A DNA stretch of 64,000 bases from Candidatus Omnitrophota bacterium (GCA_041662125.1 JBAZTA010000001.1:195118-259117); one strand, 5' to 3'; shown: positions 5,228 to 26,206, counted from the first letter of the stretch. A program made the numbers and translations. Notes: generated by a model from the sequence alone, not told the origin.

Positions 5228-6835
5228 CTACGCCAGGCTCTTTATGATGTTGCGGGCAAACGGCACCTTTTCCTGCAAAAACAGGATATCATTTACGCCG
5301 AGCAATTTCCCAGAGCGTATCCCCGCAATATAAACACACGTAAAAATCGTTCCCCGTGCCAAGAGGATGAAAAAAAGCAAATACCGCGACGGGACAGGAA
5401 CAATATATCTCAGGAGCATATCAAAAGCATAGACGAACGCAACAGCAAGGACACTCACGAACAAATACGGGATTATAATTTGAAAAAATCTTTTTACAGG
5501 GATTCCCAGCACTTTATGCAGAATTACCAGAAAATAGACCGTCCCGGCATTTGTAGCTACCATCGTACCCCAGGCAACACCGTAAAACCCCATCATTTTT
5601 ATAAACACAATGCTTAAGATAACATTTAACACGACAACAATAATCGAGCCCCGCGCCATTAATTGCGGTTTATCGATCGCCAGGCAGGTTGAGGAAGCGA
5701 CTTGAGCAATAACATTGATCATGGAACTTAAAGCCAGTATCTGAATGATAAACGCTGATTTTTCATACCCCTGCCCCATCCACACCGACATAATATGAAA
5801 CGCCGATATGATCACAAATATAAATAAGGGCACCATAAAAAATGCTAGGTATTTGGTCGTCATTAAATATGCTTCAATAAGTTTAACGCGCTCACCCCTG
5901 GCTTCGATCTCGGCAAAAGCGGGGATAAGAGCTGAAACAAGCATGTACGAGAACCCCATGACTGCCCCGACAATACCGCTGCCTAACTGATAATACGTAA
6001 CCAGTCCTAACGACAGGAAATACCCGATCAAGATCTTATCTGTTTGCGTAGTGATGACTCCGGCAACCTTGGTCATCTGCACCCGGAAACCAAAATTAAA
6101 TAACATTCCCAACATCCTGCGGTTCACAAAACGCACTCCTAAGCGTAACGAAGGCACCAAGCGAAAAGCTACCGCGATATTGACAATAGTTGCGATACAA
6201 AAAAGGATGATATTATTCACCATTAAACCGGCAAGCCCATAGCCTAAAGACAAAAACATAAGAATTCCCGTAACATTGATCAATGACATCCCTATTGCTA
6301 TTTTATTAGTCACATCCATTCTCTGTATTCCGCTCTGGAGAGAAGAAAATGAGCTCAGTGCATTATTACAGGTAAACAGAACGATCCCCGCTGACACAAC
6401 AAACTTTGTTTCGCCATATAACGCAGCAGAGACCTTAAACAAAACGAGGAGTTGGTCAATAAAAATGAAGGTTACCCCTATTACGCCGATGCCGAAAAAA
6501 GAATAAAAAACTAGCCCCGTATTGATCACTTGGTTTATCTTATCGTATTCTTTTCTGGTATAATATTCCGATAAATATTTTACAAACGAGGAACCGACGC
6601 CAAAATCAAACAAACTAAAATAACCGGTAATAACACCAATAATTGCCCAGACCCCAAAGCGTTCTATACCAATACATTTAATAATATACGGTGTTAAGAA
6701 TACACCGACGATCAAAATCCAGAAACGCCCCAAAAAATTATACAGGGTATTACGGACTATCTTGCCTGAGACGCCCCCTCTGAGCTCTGAGTGCTCATCC
6801 ATGCTGATACGCCTCCGCCGCATTTTCTTCAGCAA
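5228..6835 (-). CDS. Wzx-type oligosaccharide flippase (polysaccharide biosynthesis protein family)
   Basis: 535 aa polytopic membrane protein. N-terminal LYNFLGRFWILIVGVFLTPYII motif typical of the Wzx/MOP family. True start may be the internal Met (MDEHSEL, about 6802), which would reduce the overlap with the next gene. Confidence 0.7.
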   Translation of the reverse strand: MLKKMRRRRISMDEHSELRGGVSGKIVRNTLYNFLGRFWILIVGVFLTPYIIKCIGIERFGVWAIIGVITGYFSLFDFGVGSSFVKYLSEYYTRKEYDKINQVINTGLVFYSFFGIGVIGVTFIFIDQLLVLFKVSAALYGETKFVVSAGIVLFTCNNALSSFSSLQSGIQRMDVTNKIAIGMSLINVTGILMFLSLGYGLAGLMVNNIILFCIATIVNIAVAFRLVPSLRLGVRFVNRRMLGMLFNFGFRVQMTKVAGVITTQTDKILIGYFLSLGLVTYYQLGSGIVGAVMGFSYMLVSALIPAFAEIEARGERVKLIEAYLMTTKYLAFFMVPLFIFVIISAFHIMSVWMGQGYEKSAFIIQILALSSMINVIAQVASSTCLAIDKPQLMARGSIIVVVLNVILSIVFIKMMGFYGVAWGTMVATNAGTVYFLVILHKVLGIPVKRFFQIIIPYLFVSVLAVAFVYAFDMLLRYIVPVPSRYLLFFILLARGTIFTCVYIAGIRSGKLLGVNDILFLQEKVPFARNIIKSLA

Positions 6836-8171
6836 GTATATCCGGCAGGATTGCTACCAAAGCAGTCAAAAACCAAAACGGTTCCATGATGCGGATAATA
6901 ATGAACGTTGCTGAAGAGAAAGAATGGAATAAAAGCCCGACTAACCCCGCTAAATACCCTAAACAGAGCCCTTGAATAAAATTATTCTCACTTGCCTGAA
7001 CATACGATGTCCACGCCACCCGGAAGATCATCACGATAAGGACCAAAAACGCTGAAAAACCGATAAGGCCGGTTTCACTCAAAACCCTGGTATATTGATT
7101 ATCAACAACACTGCCTATCGGTATACCATAGCCAAGTAACGGTTTCTCTTGTACCCGCTGAAAAGCGGTACTCCAGGCGTCAATACGCGCCGCCGCAGAC
7201 TCTGAAACATCAATACGCTTGCCCATCATCTTATAGGAACGTTCAGGCGCAAACGTTTCATTGACACGCTTATATACCTTCTGGGGAAAAATAAACGGCG
7301 AGAGCAAGATCAAAGAAACAAAAACAGTGACTAACTGCGCTTTATATTTCTTACTCAACACGATGATAACCAGGAACATCGGGAAAAAAGCCAGCCACCC
7401 GCCGCGGGAAAGAGTCAGGATAAACACTAACCCGATAAACCCCAGGAAGAAGATCAGGGCTAAACGCTTCATTCTTGTTTCAGGATATACGATGAATCCC
7501 AGCGTTAAAGAAATTATCAAAAGTAAATACCCTGCAAACGTATTTGGTTCCCCCGCTTTACCCTCAAAAGGCGCTGATAACCGGCCTCCCCCGGGTATTT
7601 GGACCCAAGCGTATACACAAGCAAAAAAACAAGTCAGGAGAATAAAAAAAATAAAAATCTTAGCCTGTTTTATGGAACGCAGATTATTAACAACCATAAA
7701 ATAGAGCAGAAAATATTCTACATATTTCAAAAGAAAGAAAAATGAATGTTTTGCATTCAAATACCCTTGCAATATCCCTAATAGTGTGGAAAAAAAACAA
7801 ATAAAAGTATAAAACAGTATCGGCCGGTTTAACGTAGTGACTTTCAATAAGCCGAATTCTTTATTGACTGCCATTTTCGCAAGCCAGCCGAAGAAAATAA
7901 CGAACAAAAAAATATCATCAACACGCACCATCACAGCCCTGCCGGAGACGCCTCCTCCCGCTTCTAATTCCGGAGAGAGGAGCATGGAAAGAATAAGTAT
8001 GACTAATGCGAAATGAGTGTTCGCAAAAGAAATAGCGAAGATTACCGAAGCAAAAATAAAAACAAACGCGTACTGGACAGGAAAGCGGAAAACCACAAAA
8101 AGAAGGGATAAGAATATCGCGAAGAGGAAAACAACAACATGGACCGTCTGTGCCTTTTGATTATGAATCAT
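6795..8171 (-). CDS. O-antigen ligase/polymerase (Wzy-like) membrane protein
   Basis: 458 aa with about 10-12 TM helices and a large periplasmic loop. Called from its position in the EPS cluster. Confidence 0.5.
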   Translation of the reverse strand: MIHNQKAQTVHVVVFLFAIFLSLLFVVFRFPVQYAFVFIFASVIFAISFANTHFALVILILSMLLSPELEAGGGVSGRAVMVRVDDIFLFVIFFGWLAKMAVNKEFGLLKVTTLNRPILFYTFICFFSTLLGILQGYLNAKHSFFFLLKYVEYFLLYFMVVNNLRSIKQAKIFIFFILLTCFFACVYAWVQIPGGGRLSAPFEGKAGEPNTFAGYLLLIISLTLGFIVYPETRMKRLALIFFLGFIGLVFILTLSRGGWLAFFPMFLVIIVLSKKYKAQLVTVFVSLILLSPFIFPQKVYKRVNETFAPERSYKMMGKRIDVSESAAARIDAWSTAFQRVQEKPLLGYGIPIGSVVDNQYTRVLSETGLIGFSAFLVLIVMIFRVAWTSYVQASENNFIQGLCLGYLAGLVGLLFHSFSSATFIIIRIMEPFWFLTALVAILPDILAEENAAEAYQHG

Positions 8172-10423: not shown

Positions 10424-11209
10424 ATGAATCCTATCTTAGAAGTTAACGCAATAACCAAGAATTTCTTTTCTCCCCCTTCCTTCAAACAACTCTTCAGAGG
10501 CAACAAAAAAAAAGAAACTCCGGTACGAGCGCTGGAAAACATTTCATTTTCTCTTAAACCTGGAGAAATCATCTCCCTGCTTGGACCCAATGGGGCGGGA
10601 AAAACGACACTTCTTAAGATTATCGTAAAGCTTCTACTTCCAGACCAAGGCTCAATTATTGTAAACGGTTATACCAGTGAGGTTAACGATGAGAAAATAA
10701 AATCCACCTTGGGTATAGCAACTTCTGCTGAACGCAGCTTTTACGCCAGGTTAAGCGGAAGGCAAAACCTGGAATTCTTTGCCGCGCTGTATGGACTAAA
10801 CAAAAAACAAACTAAAAACAAGATCCAGGAACTGGGCGGATTCTTCAATGCGCATTACCTCGATAAACGCTTTGATACATATTCCGCAGGCATGCAACAA
10901 ACCTTAGGGCTCATACGAGGGCTTATGCATGAACCAAAATTACTCCTGCTTGATGAGCCCACAAAATCACTCGATTACATAAGCACGCAACACCTGCATG
11001 GGTTTATCAGAGATTTATCAAAACAATACGGCACGGCCATTATCATGACAACACATCGTATGGATGAAGCGGCACATTTCGCGGGGCTCATCATGATACT
11101 TGATAAAGGCAGGCTTCGCGCGTTCGGGAGCCGGGATGAGATCAGAAAACAAATAGCTCAACCTCATGCCACCTTAGAGGAAATATTTACCCGGCTGACG
11201 ACCCTATGA
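10424..11209 (+). CDS. ABC transporter ATP-binding protein (Wzt-like, ABC-2 exporter)
   Basis: 261 aa. Walker A GPNGAGKTT, signature YSAGMQQ, Walker B LLLLDEPT. Confidence 0.8.
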   Translation: MNPILEVNAITKNFFSPPSFKQLFRGNKKKETPVRALENISFSLKPGEIISLLGPNGAGKTTLLKIIVKLLLPDQGSIIVNGYTSEVNDEKIKSTLGIATSAERSFYARLSGRQNLEFFAALYGLNKKQTKNKIQELGGFFNAHYLDKRFDTYSAGMQQTLGLIRGLMHEPKLLLLDEPTKSLDYISTQHLHGFIRDLSKQYGTAIIMTTHRMDEAAHFAGLIMILDKGRLRAFGSRDEIRKQIAQPHATLEEIFTRLTTL

Positions 11210-12012
11210 CCAATAAAATCATCGCCTTTTTAAAAAAAGACTTTCTCATCGAATCAAGTTACAAGTTATCATTTATTTTTAACGCGTTAAGCGTTCTGGC
11301 CAGTACCCTGGCTTATTTCTTTATCGATAAATTATTCGGGCATCTGATCGTCGGGCATTTGCAGGAATTTGGCGTGACCTATTTCTCGTATGTGCTTTTA
11401 GGCATGGCTACTTTTAGCTATGTCGGAGTCGGCATAGGATCATTTTCAGCGCGGCTGCACTCTGAACAGGTCCAGGGGACATTGGAAGCAATCCTTTCGA
11501 CCCCAACGTCGATCCCTACCCTCTTATATTCACTGGCTAACTAGAACCTCTGCCTGGCGACATTCGATATGCTGATCTATATTATTTTAGGGGTCTATTT
11601 GTTTCATATAGACCTTTCCCATATTAATATCCTCTCAACCGGGATAATCTTTATACTTACCATCGCCACTTTCAGCAGCCTCGGCATTATTTCTGCGAGT
11701 TTCATCATGGTCTTTAAACGGGGCAATCCTATCAGTTGGCTGGCCAGCAACCTTGAAGGGCTTATTGGAGGGGTTTATTTCCCGATAACGGTTTTGCCGG
11801 CATGGGGGCAATTCCTGGCAAAACTTTTTCCCATTACCTATGCGATCAGGGCGCTGCAATTGTCAGTCTATCAGGGCTACAGTCCCCAACAGTTAAAAAA
11901 AGAGATCCTCGCCCTCTTCCTCTTTACCCTTATCCTGCTCCCCTTGAGCCTTTCCTTATTCAAACACAGCATTAAAATAGCGAAGAAAAACGGCAGCCTC
12001 GCAAAATATTAA
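11206..12012 (+). pseudogene. ABC-2 type transporter permease (Wzm-like) interrupted by an in-frame TAG at 11542-11544
   Basis: ORFs 11206-11544 and 11569-12012 are in the same frame (…LYSLAN*NLCLATFDMLIYII…) and together give a canonical ~265-aa six-TM ABC-2 permease. Start overlaps the ATPase stop (ATGA). Confidence 0.6.
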
Positions 12013-12051
12013 TGCTCAAAGGCAAAGACTAAAAAAGAAATCTTGTCTCAT

Positions 12052-12285
12052 AATGAACCTATCGATTTTTCTCGCTCAACACGATTTTTCACCTCAAAGC
12101 ATAACGGACGCCAATGATCTTTGGCATTTCGGTGGCTGCTGAACTCGTGTTTTTTGCTCTAGCAAAAAACCCTCGAACAGCATCGCCATCCCAGATTGTC
12201 AGCCTTTCGGCTGACCTGGGATTCCCTCAATGCCAAAGCTCCATTGGCTAAAATCGTGATTCGCTCGAAAAACCGATAGGTTCAT
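12052..12285. repeat. Long composite hairpin / MITE-like inverted-repeat element
   Basis: ~35-bp imperfect terminal inverted repeats: aatgaacctatcgatttttctcgctcaacacgattt / aaatcgtgattcgctcgaaaaaccgataggttcatt. Nested inner inverted repeats (gccaatgatctttggcatt / aatgccaaagctccattggc). Internal perfect hairpins (GTTTTTTGCT..AGCAAAAAAC; GTCAGCCtttcGGCTGAC). Confidence 0.5.
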
Positions 12286-12328
12286 TTTTATCCCTCTACC
12301 TCATAAAAGTTTATTCTACCCTGACTAC

Positions 12329-12492
12329 TAACGGGTGGCTTGGACTGTTTTCGAGCGGGGCATAAAGGCAAGGAGCGGGCACGGTGTCCGAGTGAAACGA
12401 GGACGAGCGACGCAGCCGACCTGAGTGCAGCCACGCCACGCCGGGGCGTGGCAAACGTCCCCGCGAGAAACAGTCCAAGACAGGACCCGTTA
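12329..12492. ncRNA. Candidate structured ncRNA, family not identified; GC-rich rod-like element
   Basis: Nested complementary helices: taacgggt/acccgtta (12329-36 / 12485-92), cttggactgttt/aaacagtccaag (12339-50 / 12468-79), gcgggg/ccccgc, gccacgcc/ggcgtggc. About 62% GC in a genome of about 41% GC. Sits in a convergent intergenic region. Confidence 0.3.
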
Positions 12493-12600
12493 CCTGGCAT
12501 AATATCATTAAGAGAAAAAAACCGACAGATTCATTCTAAAATAGCAGGCTATAATAGATTTAGTGGTTTGTTAAGGTTAGGATATTAGACAGGAACAATT

Positions 12601-12876
12601 TTAAACGGGAATTACCAGGCCTTTGCTCACTAGCTCTTCAATAAACTCCACAGCATCCTTTTGCAGGCTGCTTTCTTCGACTTCAAATTCATCATGAATA
12701 ATCACGAGGATCTCCCGGCAGGTTTTAGTGCCGTCAATAAGTTCCCAAATTCTCGTACCTGCCGCATTCAAAGGATAGATCAATCCGTCTTTCGGATCAA
12801 CCAACAATGCCTCTTCTTCAATCGTCCTCCAGGCAATACTCTGGTTACGCTTTATTTTCTTATCCAATAATTCCAT
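12601..12876 (-). CDS. PqqD-family RiPP recognition element (RRE) protein, stand-alone
   Basis: Matches K. pneumoniae PqqD from memory: W..(hydrophobic)..P..G....LN..(A/G)..I.EL.DG..........EF.........V.EF…L…KG motifs line up (IAWRT…YPLNAAGTRIWELIDGTKT…DAVEFIEELVSKGLV). Start assigned to the internal ATG at 12876, which has a GGAGG RBS; the ORF-track start at 12933 would overlap the kinase gene by 74 nt. Confidence 0.75.
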   Translation of the reverse strand: MELLDKKIKRNQSIAWRTIEEEALLVDPKDGLIYPLNAAGTRIWELIDGTKTCREILVIIHDEFEVEESSLQKDAVEFIEELVSKGLVIPV

Positions 12877-13669
12877 CAATATACCTCCAGATAGCTTCAT
12901 CCTGTTTAAAATAAAGTTGGTAACAGGGCACATTGTGCGTCAGATCCGCCAAAGAGACTAATAAAGTATTAACAATAGCCCTATCAGGAATATTGACCAA
13001 AATATTATGCAGTAATTCCTTAACGGCATCAGCCTGTTTAAGGCGGCGATGCGTAAACAATCTATCTTTAGAAATCAAGAAGATCGCTTTAAGCGGCGCT
13101 CCCTTGTTTTCATCAGGTAAACCAAAATCACCAAAGAAAGGCGTCGCATACGCATAGAATTTGCCTTTACGCTTAAGGATCGCCGCTGTTTCATCTGTCA
13201 AAACAATACTGCCTTGAGACAGCCGCGCAATAGTAGTTTTACCGCTCTCTGAGGGCCCAAAGAACACATACGAAAAACCACGGTGTAAAACTACACTTGC
13301 GTGCAGCAGGAATCCGCTTTTTTTCAATAAAACAACAAAACACAAAAACCGCAGCACATCAACAATCCCGACATCGGGCACTGCTGAAACACTCACCTTT
13401 TTCTTGCAAAAATCAACCTTCAGGTCAAAGGTCGCTGTTTTAAATTTCGATAAACTCTTTTGAAAGCAGTTGCAAGAACTATACCGCAGATCCTTAGGTC
13501 CTTTTCTTTTGTTTAATTGCAATGATACCAGATAATCCGGCCTATCCTGAGTGACAAAAAGGCAATAATTTTTCTTCAACCAAGTGATCTGCCGCAACTC
13601 TGCGCATCCAACTTCAAAAACAATGTCTACAAGTTTAATTTTTATCCGGTGGGCCATAATTCTTATCAA
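12860..13669 (-). CDS. HprK-related kinase (HPr kinase/phosphorylase C-terminal-domain-like), RiPP-tailoring-kinase type
   Basis: 269 aa. LHASVVLHRGFSYVFFGPSESGKTTIA is the HprK P-loop (G.SG.GKS/T) context. Start overlaps the upstream peptidase stop (ATGA). Confidence 0.7.
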   Translation of the reverse strand: MIRIMAHRIKIKLVDIVFEVGCAELRQITWLKKNYCLFVTQDRPDYLVSLQLNKRKGPKDLRYSSCNCFQKSLSKFKTATFDLKVDFCKKKVSVSAVPDVGIVDVLRFLCFVVLLKKSGFLLHASVVLHRGFSYVFFGPSESGKTTIARLSQGSIVLTDETAAILKRKGKFYAYATPFFGDFGLPDENKGAPLKAIFLISKDRLFTHRRLKQADAVKELLHNILVNIPDRAIVNTLLVSLADLTHNVPCYQLYFKQDEAIWRYIDGIIG

Positions 13670-14112
13670 AATTTTTTAAGCAGATATCTAAGCCGCGCTA
13701 TGCAGGGAAGAAAAAACGCTAAACACAACCCAAAGATCCGGGCATTCCAGGTATCAAGACAAACCACGCCTTTGTCTTTCTTAACCAAAGTTACCTTGCC
13801 AAGCAATTCTTTTGAGCCGATAAAAGTTTCAAGTGAAAAACCGGTATCAGCTTTCGCCATGACAAGCAATTCGCCGTTTCTACGCGCTTTCTTGATGACT
13901 CTATGGCTTATGAGACTATTCTGCCTCTTAAAAACAACTATATCACCATAATGCAGCTGGCTGAGCAAACAAGGAGAAATCGAGACAAGATCATTTTCTT
14001 TTAAAACCGGCACCATACTCTTACCGGTAACCCGCGCCCAACTTCCTTGATTCTTTTGCAACGCTTCGCTAAACAAAGTAAGTGAGCACAAAGAAAAATC
14101 ATGCTCAGTCAT
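13666..14112 (-). CDS. S24/S26-family (LexA/signal-peptidase-like) serine peptidase; candidate leader peptidase
   Basis: 148 aa. TGKSMVPVLKENDLV…YGDIVVFKR matches the G-x-S-M-x-P…GD…K Ser/Lys-dyad motif. ATG overlaps the TAA of the upstream peptide ORF (TAATG). Confidence 0.5.
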   Translation of the reverse strand: MTEHDFSLCSLTLFSEALQKNQGSWARVTGKSMVPVLKENDLVSISPCLLSQLHYGDIVVFKRQNSLISHRVIKKARRNGELLVMAKADTGFSLETFIGSKELLGKVTLVKKDKGVVCLDTWNARIFGLCLAFFLPCIARLRYLLKKF

Positions 14113-14270
14113 TATGAAGAATTAGTAGTACGCTGGCCCTTGCCTGTGCCAGTACGGCTGGTTTGAGAACACGTTACTGCAGTTGCCCTGCAACAAAGCG
14201 CAGCCCCTACTTCCATCATTTTAACTGCCTTTAACTGCGGTTTCTCATATGGTTTCTTTTTTTTGTTCAT
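14112..14270 (-). CDS. Candidate RiPP precursor peptide (52 aa), not in ORF track
   Basis: Minus strand AGGGAGGTGCC-ATG…TAA translates to MNKKKKPYEKPQLKAVKMMEVGAALCCRATAVTCSQTSRTGTGKGQRTTNSS. Basic leader with a Y-x-x-P-x-L motif; Cys/Ser/Thr-rich C-terminal half ending in Ser-Ser. 10 nt after the rSAM stop; stop overlaps the peptidase start. Confidence 0.5.
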   Translation of the reverse strand: MNKKKKPYEKPQLKAVKMMEVGAALCCRATAVTCSQTSRTGTGKGQRTTNSS

Positions 14271-14280
14271 GGCACCTCCC

Positions 14281-15354
14281 TTAACTTATCCTGTCATTAT
14301 ACAACTCATAATCAACTTTTGAAATACAACGCAGGGTATCATAACAAGCTTTTACATCTTTTTTCTCTAAATATGCTAACCCTAAGCACTTCTTGCAAAA
14401 ACGGATATACCGGCAATCCAGGCAATCCGGCATATCAGCGTAGGTGCGCAAATTATCCAATTCTTTGCGTAATGCTGACGGCGATTGCCAGATCTCTCGA
14501 AAACTCATCTTTCTGATATTTCCCATGGGGATCAACAGTTGAATACAGGGATACACATCCCCGTACGGAGAAATATAACAACCGATCACTCCTGTTCCGC
14601 ATAAGAGTTTTTCAAGCGGCTTATCCCAATAACCATGCTTCTTTTCAGAAAGAGGGATATTCGCGCGGGCAATCATTGAACGGATCTGGCCCTCATTGAT
14701 CTGATATTGTTTAGGCTCAGGCGAACCGTCATTTTTACAGGAAAGCTCCATGGTAAAACGATACGCCTGCGCTCCTATCTGATAACAGAATTCTTCAATT
14801 TCTTTTTCTTGATGCACATTACCATTCATTATAGCTGATTTCAATACTACCTTCAAATGATTATCTTTCAAGGATTTCACCGCTCTGCAGAGCTCTTCAA
14901 ACGATCCCGGCCGCCGCGTAATAGCATCATGCACTGCTGCAGTTGAACCATAAACGCTCATTTCAACACATAAAGGAGAAAGCTCTGCAATACGCCTGGC
15001 GCAGGTATCATCGATCAAGGTAGCGTTGGTGAAAATATTCAGCGCGAAATTCTTTTTTCTGGCATAGCGGGCAATCTTAAAAAAATCCCGGCGCAAGAAA
15101 ACTTCCCCTCCGGAAAGGGTAAGATATAATGATCCGACCTCAGATAACTGGTCTAAGAGAGAGAATATTTCACCGGTAGATAATTCTTTTTGGTTAGAAG
15201 GAAAGCTTTCTGACAAACCTTGACAATAACAGTGGATACAATCCTGATTACACCGATAGGTCAGGTCAAGATGGGCCCAAAGAGGTATTTTTCGCTCTTC
15301 TACCTTAGCTAAGATGGTATTAAATTGATATTCTGCCTTGTGGCACGATTGCAT
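14281..15354 (-). CDS. Radical SAM / SPASM-domain peptide-modifying enzyme
   Basis: 357 aa. CNQDCIHCY is the CxxxCxxC radical SAM motif. C-terminal SPASM-type Cys cluster: CGTGVIGCYISPYGDVYPC…CLDCRYIRFCKKC. Confidence 0.8.
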   Translation of the reverse strand: MQSCHKAEYQFNTILAKVEERKIPLWAHLDLTYRCNQDCIHCYCQGLSESFPSNQKELSTGEIFSLLDQLSEVGSLYLTLSGGEVFLRRDFFKIARYARKKNFALNIFTNATLIDDTCARRIAELSPLCVEMSVYGSTAAVHDAITRRPGSFEELCRAVKSLKDNHLKVVLKSAIMNGNVHQEKEIEEFCYQIGAQAYRFTMELSCKNDGSPEPKQYQINEGQIRSMIARANIPLSEKKHGYWDKPLEKLLCGTGVIGCYISPYGDVYPCIQLLIPMGNIRKMSFREIWQSPSALRKELDNLRTYADMPDCLDCRYIRFCKKCLGLAYLEKKDVKACYDTLRCISKVDYELYNDRIS

Positions 15355-15372: not shown

Positions 15373-18300
15373 TTACTTCTTAATGACCATAGCCGGGTCG
15401 CCAAAAAGATTATAGGTTTCTAAGATCGCCCTGATATTAGGATTATTCTTTTCGTACACATATTTCTTTGCCAACTGTATTGCTTCACCAAAACTCATAT
15501 TCATATTATTGTTATCAAATACCGCCTGATAGAAACCTTTCGCGAAGAATTCCTGCTCTTCAGGAGAACTCACGATACTGGGAAATACCCCGCCTGCCGC
15601 TCCTTTATCAGGAGTTAAAAGCAATACTTCACCCACTGAATCAAGAATCCTTTGCGGATATATAAAATAACCGTTAGCGCAGGTCAAAGTAATAAAGAAT
15701 GGATATTTTCCCGTATTGGTAAGGCGCCCCACATCCGCATTGGTAAATACACGGCTGGTCGACCATAAACTTATTCCTCCGTGTCCCGTATACGTGACAA
15801 AAGAAACTCCCCGGTTAATTTCCTCAAGGATCCCCTGATGCACGGCCGATGCGCTATCATTATCGAGGTATAACTTGACCTTTTGATCAGGAGCAGGGAA
15901 TTCCAGCGCCAGCCTATCAGAAAGCGACGAATAGGCTTTATGTTCATCTCCATCAGCTACGAGAAGATGGTTTCCGGTAGAATACCCTGCTGTTTCATAA
16001 TTAATGATCTTCTGTATGACTGCCTGCAGTTGCACTGTGTCGTTAACCGGGAGTCGGCCGATCATCATTTTTGGCAGAGCTGAATCTTCAAATGTAGCAA
16101 ACCAGCCATCTGAAGGCCCTTCTCCAAAACGGCCTGCATATACCAGGTATGCCGGCACCAGATTTTTAGCGCCTAATTGATACTGATCTTTATAATCAAA
16201 CGTACCGTCCCCGACAAACAACACATATTTTGGCTTCGGCAGCTGCCAATTCAGATAGGCATACTTCAAGAAATCTTTAATAGCAACCGGCGAGAAAACC
16301 CCGTAATTAAACGCATCATATATCTCATCGACCGTTACAACTTTGACCGAGTACCCTTGAGATGCCCTATACTCTACTAAAGGTTTAATACCCTCGAGGA
16401 AATCGCTATGCGTAATGACAATATAATCCGCCTGGTTAGTTTTCTTTATGATATCAGAAGGCCCAGATTGCGTGATCTCAACCGGCGAGCGCACCCCTTT
16501 ATCGGATACCGCCACGTACATCCGCTTATTCTTGTCACGATTATTAAATCGCGCGCTGTATGTTAACCCGTTATTTTCAACGCTGACATTGGCAAGCCGC
16601 ACCGGCCGGTTTTCTCTCGTAATATCAAACACATTAATTTTATCTGAGCTAAACCCAGTAATATAATACGTCGAGGCTTGAGCTTTTCCTTCAAACACAA
16701 GCGCATCATTTTGAGCAACGAAATTACGCGGGTATTGCAGCTTAACCCAATCCAAAAGCACTAATTGAGGAAGCAGGCCACCGTCGTCAGGAACTTCGAT
16801 CCTGAGGATATTCGAGCCTTCGGATAAAACAGTCGCATCAAATTCCCCCTGACAGACATAATACGTATCTCCATTCCACTGCCCAGCAGCAACGGCAACT
16901 CCATTAATATACACTTTTATTTTTTGCAGGTTGTTGCCCGCCATTAATATACTTGAGAACCCCTGCAGCCCTATTTGAATACGCGCGCTGCCTCCGGAAA
17001 CATTTAATTGGTCAACAGAAAGCTCTAATTCATAGTCCATAGGAGAAAATAATTCATCCGCCCAAAACCAGTGCTCTTCGCCGTTAATTTCAGGATAATA
17101 ACTGCTGTTATCTTCCAGCTTTACCTCGCTCATATAATAACCTTGCACAGTTCCGGCAGAAGACGCAAGCCTATTTTCTATTCTTTCTCCATTTTTATTT
17201 ATCATAAGCCAATAAATATTGCGTTTGGCATAACGGGTATCAATTGCCTTGGCGTAAAACTCGATATAATCATCCCCGGCAATGACCGACACCACTTTAC
17301 CCTGATTAAGCAGTTTGATATTCGCAGGGTCAAACAGGCTTGCATCAAAGCCTGCCGTTTGCAGATCAAGTTTAGTGAGCCGGTACATCCCATCCTGCTC
17401 AACTGCCAGTTTGAACACATCTTTCTGATTTTGCACCCTTTGCAGGCGAACCGCGGGAACATTCAGGGCATCCTTAAGGGTATTACGCTCTTTAAGTTTC
17501 TTGCCGTTACGCAATAGTATACTCTCTTCTTTATCCAGCCAGGAATTATCTCCGACTCCGACACTTACCGGGCCGACATACGTTTCTCCTGTAGGCCGGT
17601 TAAGAACTCCCAAGATATAATAATAATTCACATTGGGTTCGGTATCAATCACTTCGTAATTCTTGCCGCTGATCGGGCCGCCGCAGGAAGGAATGAATTT
17701 ACCTACCGGCACATAACTTTCTTTGTTATCCGGGGTCAAGCTGCGGTATACCTGGAAGCCTTTAACGGCAATTTCTGATTCGCTGGTAAAACGCACAGAA
17801 ATATTATTATCTCTGTTGTAATTCGCCGCTAATGAAACGATCTTTGCCGCGGTAGGTTCGCTAATAGCGATATAACGCAGGCTCATAAGAGCAAAGTCCC
17901 AATCCCTGGTTGCTGCGGCAGTCGCGGTAGATGTAGAAGTACCCAGCCTTAAATTTCCCAGGTTATTCGTCGTATCGATATAATCAGGCAGATTATTCTG
18001 ATACGTAGTAGTATAAAACGTTAACGTTGTAGTCGCGTTAGTCGAACCGGAACTGATCCAGCCTCCGGTCGTATTATTAATTCCGGTATAATCTAGCAAA
18101 CCTAATGTCACGGTATTGGTTGCCAGATTGCTCCTAAACCTGTTCGCAAGCCTGATACCGGTGATTTTTGAACCATATGGGATCGTTAAAGGGAATGAAA
18201 GATTACTTGATGAGCAATAGTTCGTTGCCCATGTCCCTGCCCGGTCTAAAGCATAAAACGTTGCAGCGCTCGTCGTAACCGTAGTATGCTGCCAGGTGGA

Positions 18301-20931
18301 ATCAGCGGAGCTGGTATCCATAGTCATGGTATTAGCTGCGGTAGTGCCTCCAGCCTCAGTTCCGAAGCTCGTTTCCGATAAAGAAACATTATTATTAACT
18401 GAACCTACAATGATATACATTAAATCAAGGGAATGATTATAACTTAACGCGGGAGCATTCGTCAGAATACCGACGCGCATTTCCCCTTCAGAAGACATAT
18501 AATCCGATAACGTAACATTTGACTTGGCGAAATAATAGGTTGCTTCCGTGGTATTTGAAAGGGTAGTAGCGTTCAAATTCTCCCAAAGTGTCGTGTTAAA
18601 ATTATAAATCTGCACATTATAGGTCAATGCCACATTAGAAACCAATCCTTCATATGCGACCATGACCGTATTAGCCCCGGTATAAGCGGCAACATTCATA
18701 AATGACAAATAATACTGTAATGCCGCCCCTGCAACATTAGGAACAGTAATACGGTTATTATCAGTCGTAAAGGTATAATCATAGGTATTGGTTTCTGTGC
18801 CTCCGGCAACTTTCGTATATCCGGCTGGTTCATAATAAGGATCAATAGCTACTTCTAATACCATTCTATCCATATAATGGATATACGAATTTGTTGTATA
18901 GCTGGAATATATCCGCAGCATCACCCTGTTATTATTTGCGGTATCTACAAAGTTTGACAGAGGCGTGGATACAGGACTGTTGCCTGACTGCCAATATCCG
19001 TCATAGATCTCCCAAACCCGGTCAGCATCAGCGGTATTGGTTAATGTCGTATTTCGCTCATTTAACGGCCTCCAGGTAGCATTCAACACATCATAGATCT
19101 GCACCTGATAGGTCAAAGCGGCATTAGATACATAGCCGCCTTCATAAATAATTAATTTATTAGCTGCCTTTAAATCAACTCCTTCAATATAGATCCGTTT
19201 ATCTAACCCATCACTTCCTCCCGTAACACTACTGGTTGCCCAATATACCGTATCATTAGCTAATGTCCCTTTCCATCCTGCAGAGGTAGCAGAAAGCGCT
19301 GCTTCTGTGCCCATGGCAAGACTAAATCCTGTTGGGCTATAACCGGCTTGTATCGAAGGACGGGTCGGAACTTCAACCCAGCGGATACTCATCATAGCAA
19401 AATCCCAGTCCCGGGTCACGGTCGCGGTCGCGGTAGAAGCGGAAGTTCGCAGCCTCAAATTACCCAGATCATTCGTACTATCGATAAAATCAGGACAGTT
19501 ATTCTGATAGGTCGTAGTATAAAATGTTATGGTTGTCGTAAGATTCGTTGAGCCTGAATCAACCCAGCCTCCTGTCGCGGCATTAATCCCTGAATAATCT
19601 TTTAAACTTAAGGCAACGGTATTTGCGGTTGAGTTACTTCTGAACCTGTTCACCATCCTGATACCGGTGACCGCGCAGCCATCCGGCACGGTGATCGGAA
19701 ATGAAAGATTTGACGAAGCAGAATAATTAGTCCCCCAGGTTCCTGCCCTATCGGAAGTATAAAACGTAGCAGCGCTCGTCGCAACCGTATCATGCTGCCA
19801 GGTAGAATTAGCGGAGCTACTGTCCATATCCCTGGTATTAGCAACAGAGGAGCCCACGGTTTCTGTGCCAAAAGATGTTTCAGACAAGCCCGCGTCGGTA
19901 TTGACGGAACCGACAATAATATACAATGAATCAATATTATGGTTACGGGTTGCCGCAGGGGCATTGGTCAAGAAACCTATTCGAGCCTCTCCATCCTGTA
20001 TATAATCAGCCAGATCGACATTTGACTTCGCGAAATAATAGGTGGTTTCCGTAGTATTAGAAAGCGTGGTGCCGGAAAGATTTTCCCAGTTTGAAGTAGT
20101 AAAATTATATATTTGTACATCATAGGTTAAAGCAACGTTAGAAACAGCGCCTTCATACGTCACCTCTATAGCGTTAGCACCGGGATAAGTCTTTACATTG
20201 TTAAAAGAGAAATAATATTGCGACGTAGCTGCTACATTACTAGCGACCGTTAAACGCGTATTATCCGAAGTAAAGGTATAATCATAGGTATTAGTAACTG
20301 CGCCGCCTGAAACTTTAGTAAAACCCGCCGCCTCATAATACGGGTCAACGGCTACTTCTAACAACATACGCTCTACATAGTGAGTACGGGCAACCGAAAC
20401 ATATGTCGAATAAATACGCAAGGTTACCCGCTGATTGGCATCCTGGGTCACAAAATTGGATAAGGGAGTTGAAATGGGGATGTTGCCTGCCTGCCAATAT
20501 CCATCATATATTTCATAGGTATAATTGGTATCAGCGGTATTGGCTAAGGTAACATTGCGTTCATTAAGCGTCCGCCAAGTGGCATTAACCACATCATAGA
20601 TCTCCACCAGATACACTAATGCCGCGTTAGAACTATACCCGCTATAACTAATAATGAATTTATTAGCGCCTTTTATATCCACACCGTCAATATAAATTTC
20701 CTTATCTAAGCCAACGCCTCCGGCTATAAGGTTGCCCGTCGCCCAATAAACGTTCTCATTTGCCAAAGCCCCTTTCCATCCCGAAGAGGTGGCAGAAAGC
20801 GCTACTTCTGTACCAACAACCAAATTATAACCGGTAGGAGTATAGCCGGAGTTAGCCCATACCTTATAAAAAACACACAATACTGAAAAACAGATGAAGA
20901 ATAATAAAAAAACAAGATTTATTTTTCTCAT
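15373..20931 (-). CDS. Giant secreted protein: signal peptide, two ~500-aa tandem repeat domains, pro-region, C-terminal peptidase C25 (gingipain-like) catalytic domain
   Basis: 1852 aa. N-terminal signal peptide MRKINLVFLLFFICFSVLCVFYKVWA. C-terminal YTGHGGISLWSTS…PFFITLTCANGYF matches the gingipain His/Cys dyad context (Kgp NYAGHGSETAWGTS…FIFDVACVNGDF). AAGGAG RBS. Confidence 0.8.
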   Translation of the reverse strand: MRKINLVFLLFFICFSVLCVFYKVWANSGYTPTGYNLVVGTEVALSATSSGWKGALANENVYWATGNLIAGGVGLDKEIYIDGVDIKGANKFIISYSGYSSNAALVYLVEIYDVVNATWRTLNERNVTLANTADTNYTYEIYDGYWQAGNIPISTPLSNFVTQDANQRVTLRIYSTYVSVARTHYVERMLLEVAVDPYYEAAGFTKVSGGAVTNTYDYTFTSDNTRLTVASNVAATSQYYFSFNNVKTYPGANAIEVTYEGAVSNVALTYDVQIYNFTTSNWENLSGTTLSNTTETTYYFAKSNVDLADYIQDGEARIGFLTNAPAATRNHNIDSLYIIVGSVNTDAGLSETSFGTETVGSSVANTRDMDSSSANSTWQHDTVATSAATFYTSDRAGTWGTNYSASSNLSFPITVPDGCAVTGIRMVNRFRSNSTANTVALSLKDYSGINAATGGWVDSGSTNLTTTITFYTTTYQNNCPDFIDSTNDLGNLRLRTSASTATATVTRDWDFAMMSIRWVEVPTRPSIQAGYSPTGFSLAMGTEAALSATSAGWKGTLANDTVYWATSSVTGGSDGLDKRIYIEGVDLKAANKLIIYEGGYVSNAALTYQVQIYDVLNATWRPLNERNTTLTNTADADRVWEIYDGYWQSGNSPVSTPLSNFVDTANNNRVMLRIYSSYTTNSYIHYMDRMVLEVAIDPYYEPAGYTKVAGGTETNTYDYTFTTDNNRITVPNVAGAALQYYLSFMNVAAYTGANTVMVAYEGLVSNVALTYNVQIYNFNTTLWENLNATTLSNTTEATYYFAKSNVTLSDYMSSEGEMRVGILTNAPALSYNHSLDLMYIIVGSVNNNVSLSETSFGTEAGGTTAANTMTMDTSSADSTWQHTTVTTSAATFYALDRAGTWATNYCSSSNLSFPLTIPYGSKITGIRLANRFRSNLATNTVTLGLLDYTGINNTTGGWISSGSTNATTTLTFYTTTYQNNLPDYIDTTNNLGNLRLGTSTSTATAAATRDWDFALMSLRYIAISEPTAAKIVSLAANYNRDNNISVRFTSESEIAVKGFQVYRSLTPDNKESYVPVGKFIPSCGGPISGKNYEVIDTEPNVNYYYILGVLNRPTGETYVGPVSVGVGDNSWLDKEESILLRNGKKLKERNTLKDALNVPAVRLQRVQNQKDVFKLAVEQDGMYRLTKLDLQTAGFDASLFDPANIKLLNQGKVVSVIAGDDYIEFYAKAIDTRYAKRNIYWLMINKNGERIENRLASSAGTVQGYYMSEVKLEDNSSYYPEINGEEHWFWADELFSPMDYELELSVDQLNVSGGSARIQIGLQGFSSILMAGNNLQKIKVYINGVAVAAGQWNGDTYYVCQGEFDATVLSEGSNILRIEVPDDGGLLPQLVLLDWVKLQYPRNFVAQNDALVFEGKAQASTYYITGFSSDKINVFDITRENRPVRLANVSVENNGLTYSARFNNRDKNKRMYVAVSDKGVRSPVEITQSGPSDIIKKTNQADYIVITHSDFLEGIKPLVEYRASQGYSVKVVTVDEIYDAFNYGVFSPVAIKDFLKYAYLNWQLPKPKYVLFVGDGTFDYKDQYQLGAKNLVPAYLVYAGRFGEGPSDGWFATFEDSALPKMMIGRLPVNDTVQLQAVIQKIINYETAGYSTGNHLLVADGDEHKAYSSLSDRLALEFPAPDQKVKLYLDNDSASAVHQGILEEINRGVSFVTYTGHGGISLWSTSRVFTNADVGRLTNTGKYPFFITLTCANGYFIYPQRILDSVGEVLLLTPDKGAAGGVFPSIVSSPEEQEFFAKGFYQAVFDNNNMNMSFGEAIQLAKKYVYEKNNPNIRAILETYNLFGDPAMVIKK
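17854..20850 (-). repeat. Tandem duplication, 2 x ~1.5 kb, encoding two ~500-aa paralogous domains inside the giant C25 gene
   Basis: Protein residues 28-528 and 529-1026 align end to end at about 65-70% identity (SGYTPTGYNLVVGTEVALSATSSGWKG… / AGYSPTGFSLAMGTEAALSATSAGWKG…). DNA blocks are visibly similar about 1.5 kb apart. Confidence 0.7.
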
Positions 20932-21169: not shown

Positions 21170-22231
21170 TTAAAAAGACTTAGCGGCTTTCCAGCGCACA
21201 CCCGCAGAAATAGCCTTTATTTTGTTAAAAAATCCTTTCTGTATCGCTAAGTATAAAAGAACACATGCGTCTTCACGGGGAAAATCGTTATTTTTCGCAT
21301 AAGTAAAGAAATATTTCTCTAAAAGAGACATTCCCTGCGGCCGTAATGTCGAAAGAAAATCCTCAGGCACAGGAGTAGAAAACAATTCTTTGATCAACGA
21401 AACTCCCATATATATAGGTAAAACAAGCCCCCATTGACGGCCCAAAGCAGCAATTTCCTGCCAATCAAGTGAATCTCGATACGCCAACACAAATGCATGT
21501 AAATCATAAAGGATATTGAGCCGTGCAAATCCATGGCGCATCCCATGTTCACACAACGCGGTAAACATCTGTTCTGGTGGCATCATAAACAAATTATCTT
21601 TATTTTTATCTATTCGAACTCCTGCATCCCAGATTTCTTCAACATCGACTCCTGAGGCTTGCTTGCGTAATAAAGGCATCGAAACATTAGATAAACCCCA
21701 ATGCAGATGCAGCGGCATAAAGACCGATTGGTCCTTATCGTGTTTTAAGAACATTGCCGCGGTCGATTCGCCTGATGGTGCATTTTTTTCCCGCGTATCA
21801 AAATTTCTATATCCCAGCGATCCAATAAGATGGCGTGCTTTCTCCACATTGGCCGCTTTTACAAGAAAATCAACATCTTCCATGCGCCTTACCCCAATGC
21901 GAGCCTGATAAACTACATGTAAAAAAAACATCCCCTTAAGCACTATGATCTCTATCCCAGCGGCCGCAAAGGCCGTGCGCAACTTTTCAAATTCCTCTAA
22001 CAAGAGGGTATTACGAAAAAGATTCATTCTATACTTCTCTTGGAGCTGTTGGTAAACCTCATCAGGAATACTTAAATCTTTTTGCCGGTCTCTGACAATA
22101 TGAAATAAAAGGGCTGATACTTTCGAACGAGCAGCAATACTCACTAACCGCCCCCAATCGCATTTCTTCCCGTTATAAGGAAGAAATTTTCCATTCAATA
22201 ACGAAACTAAATATGTTTTTACCGGTGTCAT
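21170..22231 (-). CDS. Nucleotidyltransferase-family protein, PF14907/NTP_transf_5-like
   Basis: 353 aa. IIVLKGMFFLHVVY…RRMEDVDFLVKAANVEKARHLIGSLGY resembles the LKG…D(I/V)D(L/F)LV core of the uncharacterised nucleotidyltransferase family that co-occurs with HprK-like kinases in lasso/RiPP clusters. Confidence 0.45.
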   Translation of the reverse strand: MTPVKTYLVSLLNGKFLPYNGKKCDWGRLVSIAARSKVSALLFHIVRDRQKDLSIPDEVYQQLQEKYRMNLFRNTLLLEEFEKLRTAFAAAGIEIIVLKGMFFLHVVYQARIGVRRMEDVDFLVKAANVEKARHLIGSLGYRNFDTREKNAPSGESTAAMFLKHDKDQSVFMPLHLHWGLSNVSMPLLRKQASGVDVEEIWDAGVRIDKNKDNLFMMPPEQMFTALCEHGMRHGFARLNILYDLHAFVLAYRDSLDWQEIAALGRQWGLVLPIYMGVSLIKELFSTPVPEDFLSTLRPQGMSLLEKYFFTYAKNNDFPREDACVLLYLAIQKGFFNKIKAISAGVRWKAAKSF

Positions 22232-25114: not shown

Positions 25115-26206
25115 TTAAACTTGATTATTTAAACATTCATCGACATAAATCATGGAATTATCCGCCAGATTAACCTGTTTAGGCTCTTTTAATTCTTTCC
25201 CATACGCGTCAATAATGATATTAACTACCGGACGCAGCGGTAAATCAAGATTTTCCCTGACCACTAAACCGATCTCTTTAGTATTAAGCCTGACCAGTGT
25301 CCCGAGAGGAAATACCCCTATGCGTTCGATCAATAATTTAATGATCTTATGGTCAAAAAATGACTTATTCTTTAAAATTGTTTTAATCGTCTCCAAAGGG
25401 CTGAATTTAAGGCGGTACGGGCGCTTATGGTTCATCGCCTCATAAACATCGACTAACCCGACAATGCGCGCATATTCACAGATCTGATCCTCCTTAAGGC
25501 CGGCAGGATACCCGGCACCATCCATACGCTCATGTTCCTGGCGCACGACATCAAAAACCCGCTGTCCGAATTCCCGGCCAAACTTTTGTACTATTTCAAG
25601 CCCTGCCAAAGGATGCTCTTTAATACGCTTGGTTTCTTCAAGCCTCAAAACATCTGGTTTATTGATAATATCGAAACACTTCACCATTCCTATGTCATGT
25701 GTCAGCGCAGCAACGCCTAATTCCATTAATCCAGCCTGGTCAAAGCGTAAACCTATCCCCAGCTCAAGAGAAATAACGCAGACATTAACGGTATGATAAT
25801 AAAAGTAATCCGTGGCTTGAGGATAATCAATTAAGCAACACCGCAATAAATTCTTATTGCCCCCTTGCAGCAACCCAATAGTTTTTTCAACCAACGGGGA
25901 AAGCGAAGCAAGGAATCCTTCCTCATATTTTAAATCAGGATTATACAATACGCGGGATGCCGATACGAGATGGTCATACAATTCAGAGGCTTTTGTGGCG
26001 TTAATACTATTTAACTCTTTATGAACAGCTGCTGAAATGCTGACTTGCTGTGCTTGCGGGACTTGGTTTTGATCTGCCGATCCTCCTGTACCCTGCGGGG
26101 GAACCCTGTACGCGCTTCCTAAAACACCCGAATTTATCTCAAAATCAGTATCAAGGTTTTTCTTTTGCTCCCTGTGTTTCTTGAAAATATCGGATATTCT
26201 AAGCAT
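25115..26206 (-). CDS. HD-GYP domain protein (putative c-di-GMP phosphodiesterase)
   Basis: 363 aa. HDIG motif (ALTHDIGM) and HERMDGAGYPAGL (HD-GYP signature). Confidence 0.7.
   Translation of the reverse strand: MLRISDIFKKHREQKKNLDTDFEINSGVLGSAYRVPPQGTGGSADQNQVPQAQQVSISAAVHKELNSINATKASELYDHLVSASRVLYNPDLKYEEGFLASLSPLVEKTIGLLQGGNKNLLRCCLIDYPQATDYFYYHTVNVCVISLELGIGLRFDQAGLMELGVAALTHDIGMVKCFDIINKPDVLRLEETKRIKEHPLAGLEIVQKFGREFGQRVFDVVRQEHERMDGAGYPAGLKEDQICEYARIVGLVDVYEAMNHKRPYRLKFSPLETIKTILKNKSFFDHKIIKLLIERIGVFPLGTLVRLNTKEIGLVVRENLDLPLRPVVNIIIDAYGKELKEPKQVNLADNSMIYVDECLNNQV

Follow-up and report, generated by a model that had tools for sequence, protein, structure and literature searches.

The leaders of lasso-peptide precursors carry a Y-x-x-P-x-L motif that is bound by PqqD-type recognition elements for peptides that are ribosomally synthesized and then modified posttranslationally (RiPPs), known as RiPP recognition elements (RREs). 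The mycofactocin system brings four components to bear on a conserved precursor C-terminus, namely a PqqD-type RRE, a radical S-adenosylmethionine (rSAM)/SPASM enzyme, a peptidase, and a glycosyltransferase. In paeninodin and pseudomycoidin, HprK homologues act on the lasso precursors by phosphorylating their C-terminal Ser; in pseudomycoidin, the addition of hexose to this phosphate requires an uncharacterized nucleotidyltransferase, PsmN (PMC6993621, PMC8498205). Here we describe a five-gene cassette in a 64,000-nt stretch, which we call the window, of a Candidatus Omnitrophota metagenome-assembled genome (GCA_041662125.1 JBAZTA010000001.1:195118-259117; locus tags WDL87_00920 and WDL87_00930, on a contig of 646 kb). 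At a probability of roughly 55%, we read the cassette as a RiPP operon of a large uncharacterized family, built from a ScmC-type protein with a phosphoenolpyruvate carboxykinase (PEPCK)/HprK fold, a PqqD RRE, and usually an rSAM/SPASM enzyme. The biosynthetic steps that we propose for it are all predictions.

Results

The cassette consists of five tightly packed open reading frames (ORFs) on the minus strand. The ORF listing places them at 14281-15354 (357 aa, the rSAM/SPASM enzyme), 14112-14270 (52 aa, the peptide), 13666-14112 (148 aa, the peptidase), 12860-13669 (269 aa, the kinase-like protein), and 12601-12933 (110 aa, PqqD), in agreement with a first-pass annotation of this DNA. Pfam scans covered 45 window ORFs, including most but not all of those of at least 100 aa, and bore out the domain assignments for Radical_SAM (4e-21), SPASM (6.5e-12), Peptidase_S24 (2.8e-7), and PqqD (5.9e-16). 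The 10-nt gap reported between the rSAM and peptide genes is present; it reads rSAM stop, GGGAGGTGCC, peptide ATG, and is in itself a ribosome-binding site. The TAATG stop/start overlap that couples the peptide gene to the peptidase gene could also be read directly from the sequence.

Two details of the gene boundaries had to be corrected. With the TTG at 13669 as the start codon, the peptidase and kinase-like genes meet in TTGA and not in the supposed ATGA. It is more likely that the latter gene begins with the ATG at 13657, 8 nt past the peptidase stop, as in the NCBI/JGI model of the protein (P0001), which has 265 aa; we therefore place this gene at 12860-13657. The PqqD protein is most likely 91 aa rather than 110 aa, with a start at 12876 behind GGAGG (gene at 12601-12876), according to the public annotation of an identical contig. 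The five genes do belong together, but the unit as first drawn was too small. It omitted a PF14907 gene, a cyclic di-GMP (c-di-GMP) riboswitch, a C25 peptidase, and an ABC-2 exporter, and it ignored the exopolysaccharide (EPS) context.

The 52-aa peptide gene is genuine. Besides its ribosome-binding site and translational coupling, it has conserved homologues and is under purifying selection. The peptide, MNKKKKPYEKPQLKAVKMMEVGAALCCRATAVTCSQTSRTGTGKGQRTTNSS, divides into a predicted leader, KKPYEKPQLKAVKMMEVGA, and a predicted core, ALCCRATAVTC...NSS. ORFs of the same size (51 to 53 aa) lie at the equivalent place in orthologous Omnitrophota loci. The orthologue in the closely related locus L002 reads ...YEKPELKAVKMLEVGAALCCRATTGTCSNTNRTSRGKGQRTVTSS, and those in L003, L005, L018, and L020 are similar. 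Pairwise pN/pS (the ratio of nonsynonymous to synonymous differences per site) was 0.20 to 0.38 at a pS of 0.65 to 1.0, which means that synonymous sites are saturated. Therefore, the precursor protein is under strong purifying selection.

More distant cassettes encode peptides of the same architecture (L007, L021, L022, L023, and L009 and L015 from Acidobacteriota). A search with the single window peptide found only 3 proteins, and a metagenome scan with it found only 3 loci; the family came into view only with a profile of 14 sequences, which at E<=10 picked up 1,637 small proteins. In the alignment behind this profile, made of 14 peptides from rSAM-containing loci in three phyla, Y8, P11, C26, C34, and S52 are invariant. 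We counted composition in the best 120 of the 1,637 profile matches (E<=6e-9). A C-terminal Ser was present in 119 of them, as it was in all 14 aligned precursors from rSAM loci, and all 120 had 2 to 4 Cys at conserved spacing. A Y-x-[KRA]-P leader motif, corresponding to a lasso-like P-Y-x-K-P-x-h, was found in 118. None of these 120 homologues is named or has a Pfam domain.

The family has three main subfamilies, with CC-x6-C (52 to 54 aa, the window type), C-x7-C (38 aa), and C-x9-C (59 to 61 aa) patterns. The leader register is fixed as Y0-x-K2-P3-x-h5 ... E12-[A/T/V]13-x-A15, after which the core begins. The two invariant Cys are 18 to 26 residues from the C-terminus, which is itself conserved as [T]-[TS]-S; the window precursor ends in N-S-S. 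One Acidobacteriota locus, L015, has three precursor genes in tandem (38, 38, and 45 aa; 6702-7501), between its rSAM and C25 genes. Their products have C-x7-C cores and all end in T-S.

The window peptide matched no Pfam or NCBIfam family, and the cassette sits within an EPS locus. Both facts would suit a scenario in which the 52-aa ORF is non-functional and the rSAM, ScmC, and PqqD proteins act on some other substrate, such as a protein or an EPS polysaccharide intermediate. We regard this as effectively refuted. The ribosome-binding site, the translational coupling, and a pN/pS of 0.2 to 0.4 with saturated pS all speak for a real gene. Such an ORF occupies the equivalent place in every rSAM-containing locus examined and has about 1,600 homologues with a common motif architecture, and the PqqD RRE itself implies a peptide substrate.

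We looked for the cassette in other genomes, as the first-pass annotation had suggested. At least 12 independent loci in public data share its gene order, and the homologous cassettes do carry a peptide gene. This recurrence, together with the pN/pS values of 0.20 to 0.38, makes the cassette more than a chance arrangement. Its neighbors also recur, across Omnitrophota, Acidobacteriota, and Chloroflexi. The constant pair is ScmC and PqqD, which are adjacent in nearly every locus examined, even where there is no rSAM gene. An rSAM/SPASM gene is found in about two-thirds of the loci, and the S24-type peptidase and PF14907 genes are each found in about 12 of 19. PF14907 genes are in or beside the cassette in L002-L005, L007, L011, L017, L021, L022, and two further contigs. 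A C25 peptidase gene is present in about 8 of 19 loci from three phyla: Omnitrophota (the window, L002, L005, and L021), Chloroflexi (L010, L012, and L013), and Acidobacteriota (L015). It lies between the precursor and PqqD genes in the three Chloroflexi loci and directly after the precursor genes in L015. A convergent ABC ATPase/ABC-2 pair follows PqqD in L002, L003, and L007, as it does in the window. Other recurrent neighbors are a pair of AAA_22 and HD_5 genes, EPS genes, methyltransferase genes, and, in two contigs, a PMT_2 glycosyltransferase gene.

The three Chloroflexi loci represent a variant without rSAM. Their order is small membrane protein, ScmC, precursor, C25, sometimes S24, and then PqqD. 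The precursors have the same leader as those of rSAM loci, and their cores are Cys-free and Pro-rich (GSPIPLKIDPLNPDAW... and GSPLGLPDPFNL...). Core Cys thus track the rSAM enzyme, with 2 to 4 in every rSAM locus and none in the three loci that lack it, and this correlation ties the rSAM enzyme to Cys. The modification chemistry of the Chloroflexi variant must differ from that of the rSAM loci. We rejected the idea that its AGSP... cores are lasso peptides; these loci have no cyclase, and C25 stands between the precursor and PqqD.

The kinase-like protein had been described in the first-pass annotation as HprK-like. A P-loop protein of PEPCK/HprK fold it appears to be, but by sequence its family is ScmC. 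There was no HprK_C (PF07475) match at E<=0.1 in Pfam, which rules out a genuine HPr kinase. Precomputed Pfam annotation assigns PF27840 (ScmC) to the protein and to all 120 of its listed homologues. Its NCBIfam matches were weak, to ScmC TIGR04249 (2e-5; 24.1 bits versus a cut-off of 125) and to HprK_rel_A TIGR04352 (0.057; 12.5 versus 200). The family is large, with 1,862 representatives at E<=1e-30 (clusters at 50% identity). A scan of genome contigs with an ScmC profile was swamped by the P-loop pattern and gave only 8 distant loci.

An alignment of 42 ScmC homologues has invariant H119, F132-x-G134, G139-K-T-T142 (the Walker A motif), D155, and T172-P-F174, and E156 is conserved in at least 90%. 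These His, Walker A, and acidic motifs come in the same order as the catalytic motifs of PEPCK and HprK, and the protein aligned to a PEPCK profile at 1.6e-5. Its AlphaFold2 model has a mean confidence (pLDDT) of 91.9, and the top Foldseek match of the model was ATP-PEPCK (2e-9), followed by HprK/P, with no other fold matched. Judged by this model, ScmC is a P-loop protein of PEPCK/HprK fold with its catalytic-type residues intact, nearer overall to PEPCK, and we consider it a candidate peptide kinase.

The 357-aa protein has the radical SAM Cys motif CxxxCxxC (C35, C39, and C42) and the SPASM Cys cluster that the first-pass annotation had recognized, here as six conserved Cys (252, 270, 311, 314, 320, and 323). 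These Cys make a full SPASM domain, and the protein is a predicted peptide maturase. Its NCBIfam scores were taken from the best 25 of 61 matches, and among these it fell below every equivalog cut-off. The top full-length matches were to MftC (TIGR03962; 129.6 bits versus a cut-off of 265) and to the sactisynthase StsB (118.5 bits). Among solved structures, the thioether synthase SkfB came closest (1.1e-17), ahead of PqqE and CteB. We rejected two other assignments. No anaerobic sulfatase-maturating enzyme family was among the best 25 of the 61 NCBIfam matches, and no sulfatase was found in the 45 Pfam-scanned window ORFs, which speaks against a sulfatase maturase with a nearby cognate sulfatase. 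An anti-phage defense system was also set aside, as PADLOC returned generic rSAM/viperin similarity only.

An rSAM/SPASM enzyme, a Cys-containing core, and an RRE are the canonical layout of sactipeptide and ranthipeptide loci. The cassette might then make an ordinary bacteriocin of this kind. Thioethers would be the sole modification that matters, ScmC would help as an ATPase or scaffold (perhaps in leader handling or immunity) and not act as a peptide kinase, and the EPS genes, C25, and riboswitch would be there by coincidence. The lack of C25 and PF14907 in several homologous loci would fit this, as would the lack of a match between ScmC and any characterized kinase family. However, ScmC and PqqD are the most constant pair and are kept even without rSAM, and the Walker A, His, and Asp catalytic-type residues of ScmC are invariant. 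Also, an ordinary bacteriocin would leave the C-terminal Ser (119 of 120) with no role, and the EPS/glycosylation genes and C25 recur across phyla. We therefore find the bacteriocin explanation unlikely.

The MftC match raises another alternative, that the peptide is a sacrificial scaffold like those of mycofactocin or PQQ. The rSAM enzyme and ScmC would act on the C-terminal T-x-S, and the S24-type or C25 protease would free a small modified, possibly glycosylated fragment that serves as a cofactor or an EPS building block. MftC is the top full-length match among the best 25 of 61, and the mycofactocin parts described above have counterparts here. The conserved [T]-[TS]-S end of the precursor and the correlation of the C-terminal Ser with the presence of rSAM also agree with a scaffold. 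However, the MftC score (129.6 bits) is far under the cut-off of 265. The two invariant Cys, at their conserved spacing 18 to 26 residues from the C-terminus, point to a structured peptide product instead, and the tandem precursor genes of L015 are more typical of peptide end-products. We consider a scaffold rather improbable, and continue to prefer a RiPP operon in which the peptide itself is the product.

The 148-aa protein is of the S24/S26 type, as had been proposed (Peptidase_S24, 2.8e-7), but the Ser/Lys dyad proposed with it does not hold. Its motifs are Ser-His-Asp, which rules out a Ser/Lys-dyad S24 peptidase. It aligns to human SEC11A/C over the SGSMxP, HRV, and KGD motifs. All 10 orthologues have S32 (of SMxP), H70, and R71, and 9 of the 10 have K87 and D89 (K-x-D). 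The top NCBIfam match was to archaeal signal peptidase I (TIGR02228; 2.8e-11, 43.5 bits versus a cut-off of 51.85). On the strength of these motifs, we predict that it is a Ser-His-Asp peptidase of the endoplasmic reticulum (ER)/archaeal signal-peptidase type (SipW/Sec11) and a candidate leader peptidase. The peptidase and ScmC are fused into one 420-aa protein in two homologues (P0069 and P0074), which argues that the two proteins work together.

PqqD is the stand-alone RRE that the first-pass annotation had described, with a Pfam PqqD match of 5.9e-16, and is a putative binder of the leader peptide. In NCBIfam it comes closest to the PqqD families of the GeoRSP, lasso, and ScmD systems but is below the threshold for each of them; the lasso-specific model, NF033536, scored 40.4 versus a cut-off of 80, beside the Y-x-K-P-x-h motif in the leader. 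Even so, the window does not encode a true lasso cluster, which we rejected because there is no cyclase and no B2 protease. No asparagine-synthetase-like cyclase was matched in the 45 Pfam-scanned window ORFs or found in the homologous loci. Similarly, no transglutaminase-family B2 protease was matched in those 45 ORFs, in which the sole proteases are the S24/S26-type and C25 enzymes. These results agree with the first-pass annotation, which had noted that both lasso enzymes are missing from the window. Furthermore, the window core, ALCCRATAVTCSQTSRTGTGKGQRTTNSS, has no Asp or Glu, so there is no acceptor for a lasso ring at position 7 to 9.

The gene just upstream of rSAM on the minus strand (15373-20931) encodes a secreted protein of 1,852 aa that has a C25 cysteine peptidase domain of the gingipain/PorU type at its C-terminus (Peptidase_C25, 1.1e-87). 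Its stop and the rSAM start are 18 nt apart. Both catalytic residues, His in YTGHGG and Cys in LTCANG, are aligned with those of gingipain R, and PorU (6za2) was matched at 1.2e-9. To the eye, its first ~1,000 residues resemble a pair of related modules of ~500 aa; self-BLAST returned the identity match only, so this repeat is unconfirmed. A region at about residues 1028-1132 resembles the small membrane proteins encoded just 5' of ScmC in the Chloroflexi loci (L010, 5384-5944; L012, 5032-5664; L013, 3930-4397).

The 5' leader of the C25 gene contains a c-di-GMP-I riboswitch aptamer (RF01051; 21032-21117, minus strand), 100 nt upstream of the gene start. It scored 73.4 bits versus a gathering score of 35 (E = 1.7e-12). 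L002 has a riboswitch at the equivalent position (517-602, 80 bits), and none was found in the other homologous loci scanned. The riboswitch is probably upstream of the whole cassette, with C25 as the first gene of the transcription unit. Beyond the riboswitch, the next gene upstream (21170-22231, minus strand) encodes a PF14907 (NTP_transf_5) nucleotidyltransferase (2.5e-46, 158.7 bits), which is a candidate tailoring enzyme.

On the other side, convergent plus-strand genes at 10424-12012 encode an ABC ATPase and an ABC-2 permease, a candidate exporter (ABC_tran, 2.3e-28; ABC2_membrane, 7e-7). The permease reads as two ORFs, of 112 and 147 aa, split by a TAG codon that could be a nonsense mutation, which would make the gene a pseudogene, or an assembly error. 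Between the ABC-2 and PqqD genes are about 590 nt of non-coding DNA (12013-12600); in L002 the two genes directly abut. In this interval, 37-nt inverted repeats (12052-12088 and 12250-12286) enclose a segment of ~235 nt, and a 19-nt direct repeat (12268 and 12517) flanks a GC-rich segment of ~249 nt. Both look like small insertions resembling miniature inverted-repeat transposable elements. The GC-rich stretch downstream of PqqD matched no Rfam family, and its fold z-score was only -1.8.

All of these genes are inside an EPS locus, with Wzx, Wzy, Wzz/BY-kinase, Wza, glycosyl- and methyltransferases, an XrtA/PEP-CTERM-like ATPase, an HD-GYP-type HD_5 protein, and secretins. The AAA_22 ATPase gene (XrtA/PEP-CTERM-associated-like, 228 bits, sub-threshold) and the HD_5 gene (HD-GYP-type, c-di-GMP phosphodiesterase-like) form a pair at 25115-27041 on the minus strand. 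The same pair is immediately 5' of the cassette in the Omnitrophota loci L004, L007, and L022, and an HD_5 gene alone adjoins two of the Chloroflexi versions (L010 and L013). Just past the EPS genes are two paralogous PilQ/GspD-like secretin genes (28642-30435 and 33728-35545, minus strand) and a gene for a 1,025-aa TPR protein. No pilus or type II secretion system ATPase was noticed among the ORFs scanned.

Discussion

We rate this locus as an RRE-dependent rSAM RiPP system in which tailoring and processing enzymes are combined in a new way and whose precursor family is large and unnamed. In the pathway that we propose, PqqD would bind the conserved P-Y-x-K-P-x-h leader, and the rSAM/SPASM enzyme would modify the core around the invariant C26...C34. 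Thioether bridges of the sacti or ranthi type are the most likely modification, because SkfB and StsB are the nearest relatives of the enzyme and because Cys correlates with rSAM. With ATP, ScmC might phosphorylate the peptide, most plausibly on its invariant C-terminal Ser, in the manner of the HprK-type kinases of paeninodin and pseudomycoidin. Next, the PF14907 enzyme may attach a sugar to the phosphate, for which PsmN in pseudomycoidin is a precedent. The invariant C-terminal Ser together with the lasso-like leader strengthens this analogy with phospho-lasso tailoring. Type I signal peptidases cut after small residues at -3 and -1. The signal-peptidase-like protease would remove the leader after E-[VTA]-x-A, which has small residues at these positions (between EVGA and A in the window), and the convergent ABC-2 transporter would export the product.

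Several points weigh against this reading. Crosslinking, phosphorylation, and leader cleavage are what we infer from the genes. By NCBIfam score (best 25 of 61 matches), the rSAM enzyme is as near to MftC and AhbD as to sactisynthases. The resemblance of ScmC to lasso kinases is at the level of fold and motifs only, given that it has no HprK_C match. In two of the three rSAM-less Chloroflexi loci the peptides have no C-terminal Ser, although ScmC is present, which means that the C-terminal Ser tracks rSAM as well as ScmC. The 148-aa peptidase has no N-terminal membrane anchor, its sole hydrophobic segment being C-terminal, and where we expect cleavage, one large precursor subfamily has G-A-D-T in place of E-x-x-A. 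An in-frame TAG (11542-11544), where the L002 orthologue has Trp, breaks the ABC-2 permease gene (11206-12012). Finally, the riboswitch was found in only the two closest loci (the window and L002), and the 18-nt spacing is all that points to co-transcription of C25 with the cassette.

The c-di-GMP riboswitch upstream, and the EPS locus with its secreted C25 peptidase, suggest a product that works on the cell surface or within the biofilm matrix and is not a classical bacteriocin. This could be taken further. The modified peptide might be no free antibiotic but a c-di-GMP-controlled component of the envelope or matrix. ScmC would phosphorylate its invariant C-terminal Ser, to which PF14907 and the EPS machinery would then attach a glycan. 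It would then be a peptide-phosphoglycan conjugate or an EPS primer or cap, which C25 processes or transfers outside the cell. We think that this extension is improbable; if true, it would describe a new kind of RiPP-polysaccharide conjugate that is widespread in uncultured phyla.

The ScmC family is essentially unstudied and is found mostly in uncultured phyla (Omnitrophota, Acidobacteriota, Methylomirabilota, and Chloroflexi). We found no publication on ScmC, SynChlorMet, or this gene combination. A literature search on PF14907 returned a phosphonate paper only, and papers on Omnitrophota and RiPPs gave only generic counts of biosynthetic gene clusters. The cassette brings together components that usually belong to different RiPP classes: leader, RRE, and predicted tailoring of the C-terminal Ser as in lasso peptides, an rSAM enzyme of the sacti/ranthi type, and a leader protease of the signal-peptidase type. 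If the proposed RiPP operon is real, it would define a new RiPP class and give the ScmC/PEPCK-fold family its first function. C-terminal phosphorylation, with or without glycosylation, would extend past lasso peptides. Also, a RiPP would be linked to c-di-GMP signaling and EPS production, which is an unusual setting for RiPPs and suggests a structural or matrix role.

The first-pass annotation had inferred a hybrid RiPP pathway that it could not assign to any described class. A RiPP-type cassette it does appear to be. However, it has uncharacterized relatives in the databases, namely Haft's SynChlorMet ScmC/D/E/F and the Pfam ScmC family, even though the locus scores below all the equivalog cut-offs. 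Like SynChlorMet (NCBIfam ScmC TIGR04249, ScmD TIGR04248, and ScmE/ScmF TIGR04250/04251), it combines ScmC-like, PqqD-related, and PqqE-like rSAM/SPASM proteins. However, the window proteins scored 24.1 versus 125 for ScmC, 37.5 versus 100 for ScmD, and 103.7 versus 400 for ScmE/F. Furthermore, the window has one rSAM gene, not two, and its additional components are a peptidase, PF14907, C25, ABC-2, and a precursor that is clearly identified.

Mycofactocin (MftA-F) is similar in having a PqqD-type RRE, an rSAM/SPASM enzyme, a peptidase, a glycosylating enzyme, and a conserved precursor C-terminus. Apart from the MftC score of 129.6 versus 265, the window differs in that the precursor ends in T-x-S and not Val-Tyr, and mycofactocin loci do not have the conserved Cys pair, the ScmC protein, or the EPS context. 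Sactipeptide and ranthipeptide systems (SkfB, AlbA, StsB, and CteB) share an RRE-dependent rSAM/SPASM enzyme with auxiliary-cluster Cys and a Cys-containing core. Unlike in those systems, the RRE here is a separate protein, and the StsB, AlbA, and SkfB family scores are under their cut-offs (best 25 of 61 matches). Those systems have nothing that corresponds to ScmC, PF14907, the signal-peptidase-type component, or the invariant C-terminal Ser. The peptidase resembles ER and archaeal signal peptidases (Sec11 and SipW; MEROPS S26B) in its SM-x-P, H-R, and K-x-D motifs and in the small residues at -3 and -1 of the proposed site. It differs from them in being short (148 aa), without an N-terminal anchor, under the TIGR02228 cut-off, encoded in a putative RiPP operon, and sometimes fused to ScmC.

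The phospho-lasso systems (paeninodin with PadeK, and pseudomycoidin with PsmK and PsmN) have in common with the window a stand-alone PqqD RRE, a Y-x-x-P-x-h leader, a C-terminal Ser, a P-loop protein of HprK/PEPCK fold, and a PF14907-type gene. Unlike them, the window cassette has no cyclase, B2 protease, or core Asp/Glu acceptor, and its kinase-like protein belongs to the ScmC family, not to HprK_C. In place of the lasso enzymes, it has an rSAM/SPASM enzyme and a signal-peptidase-like protease.

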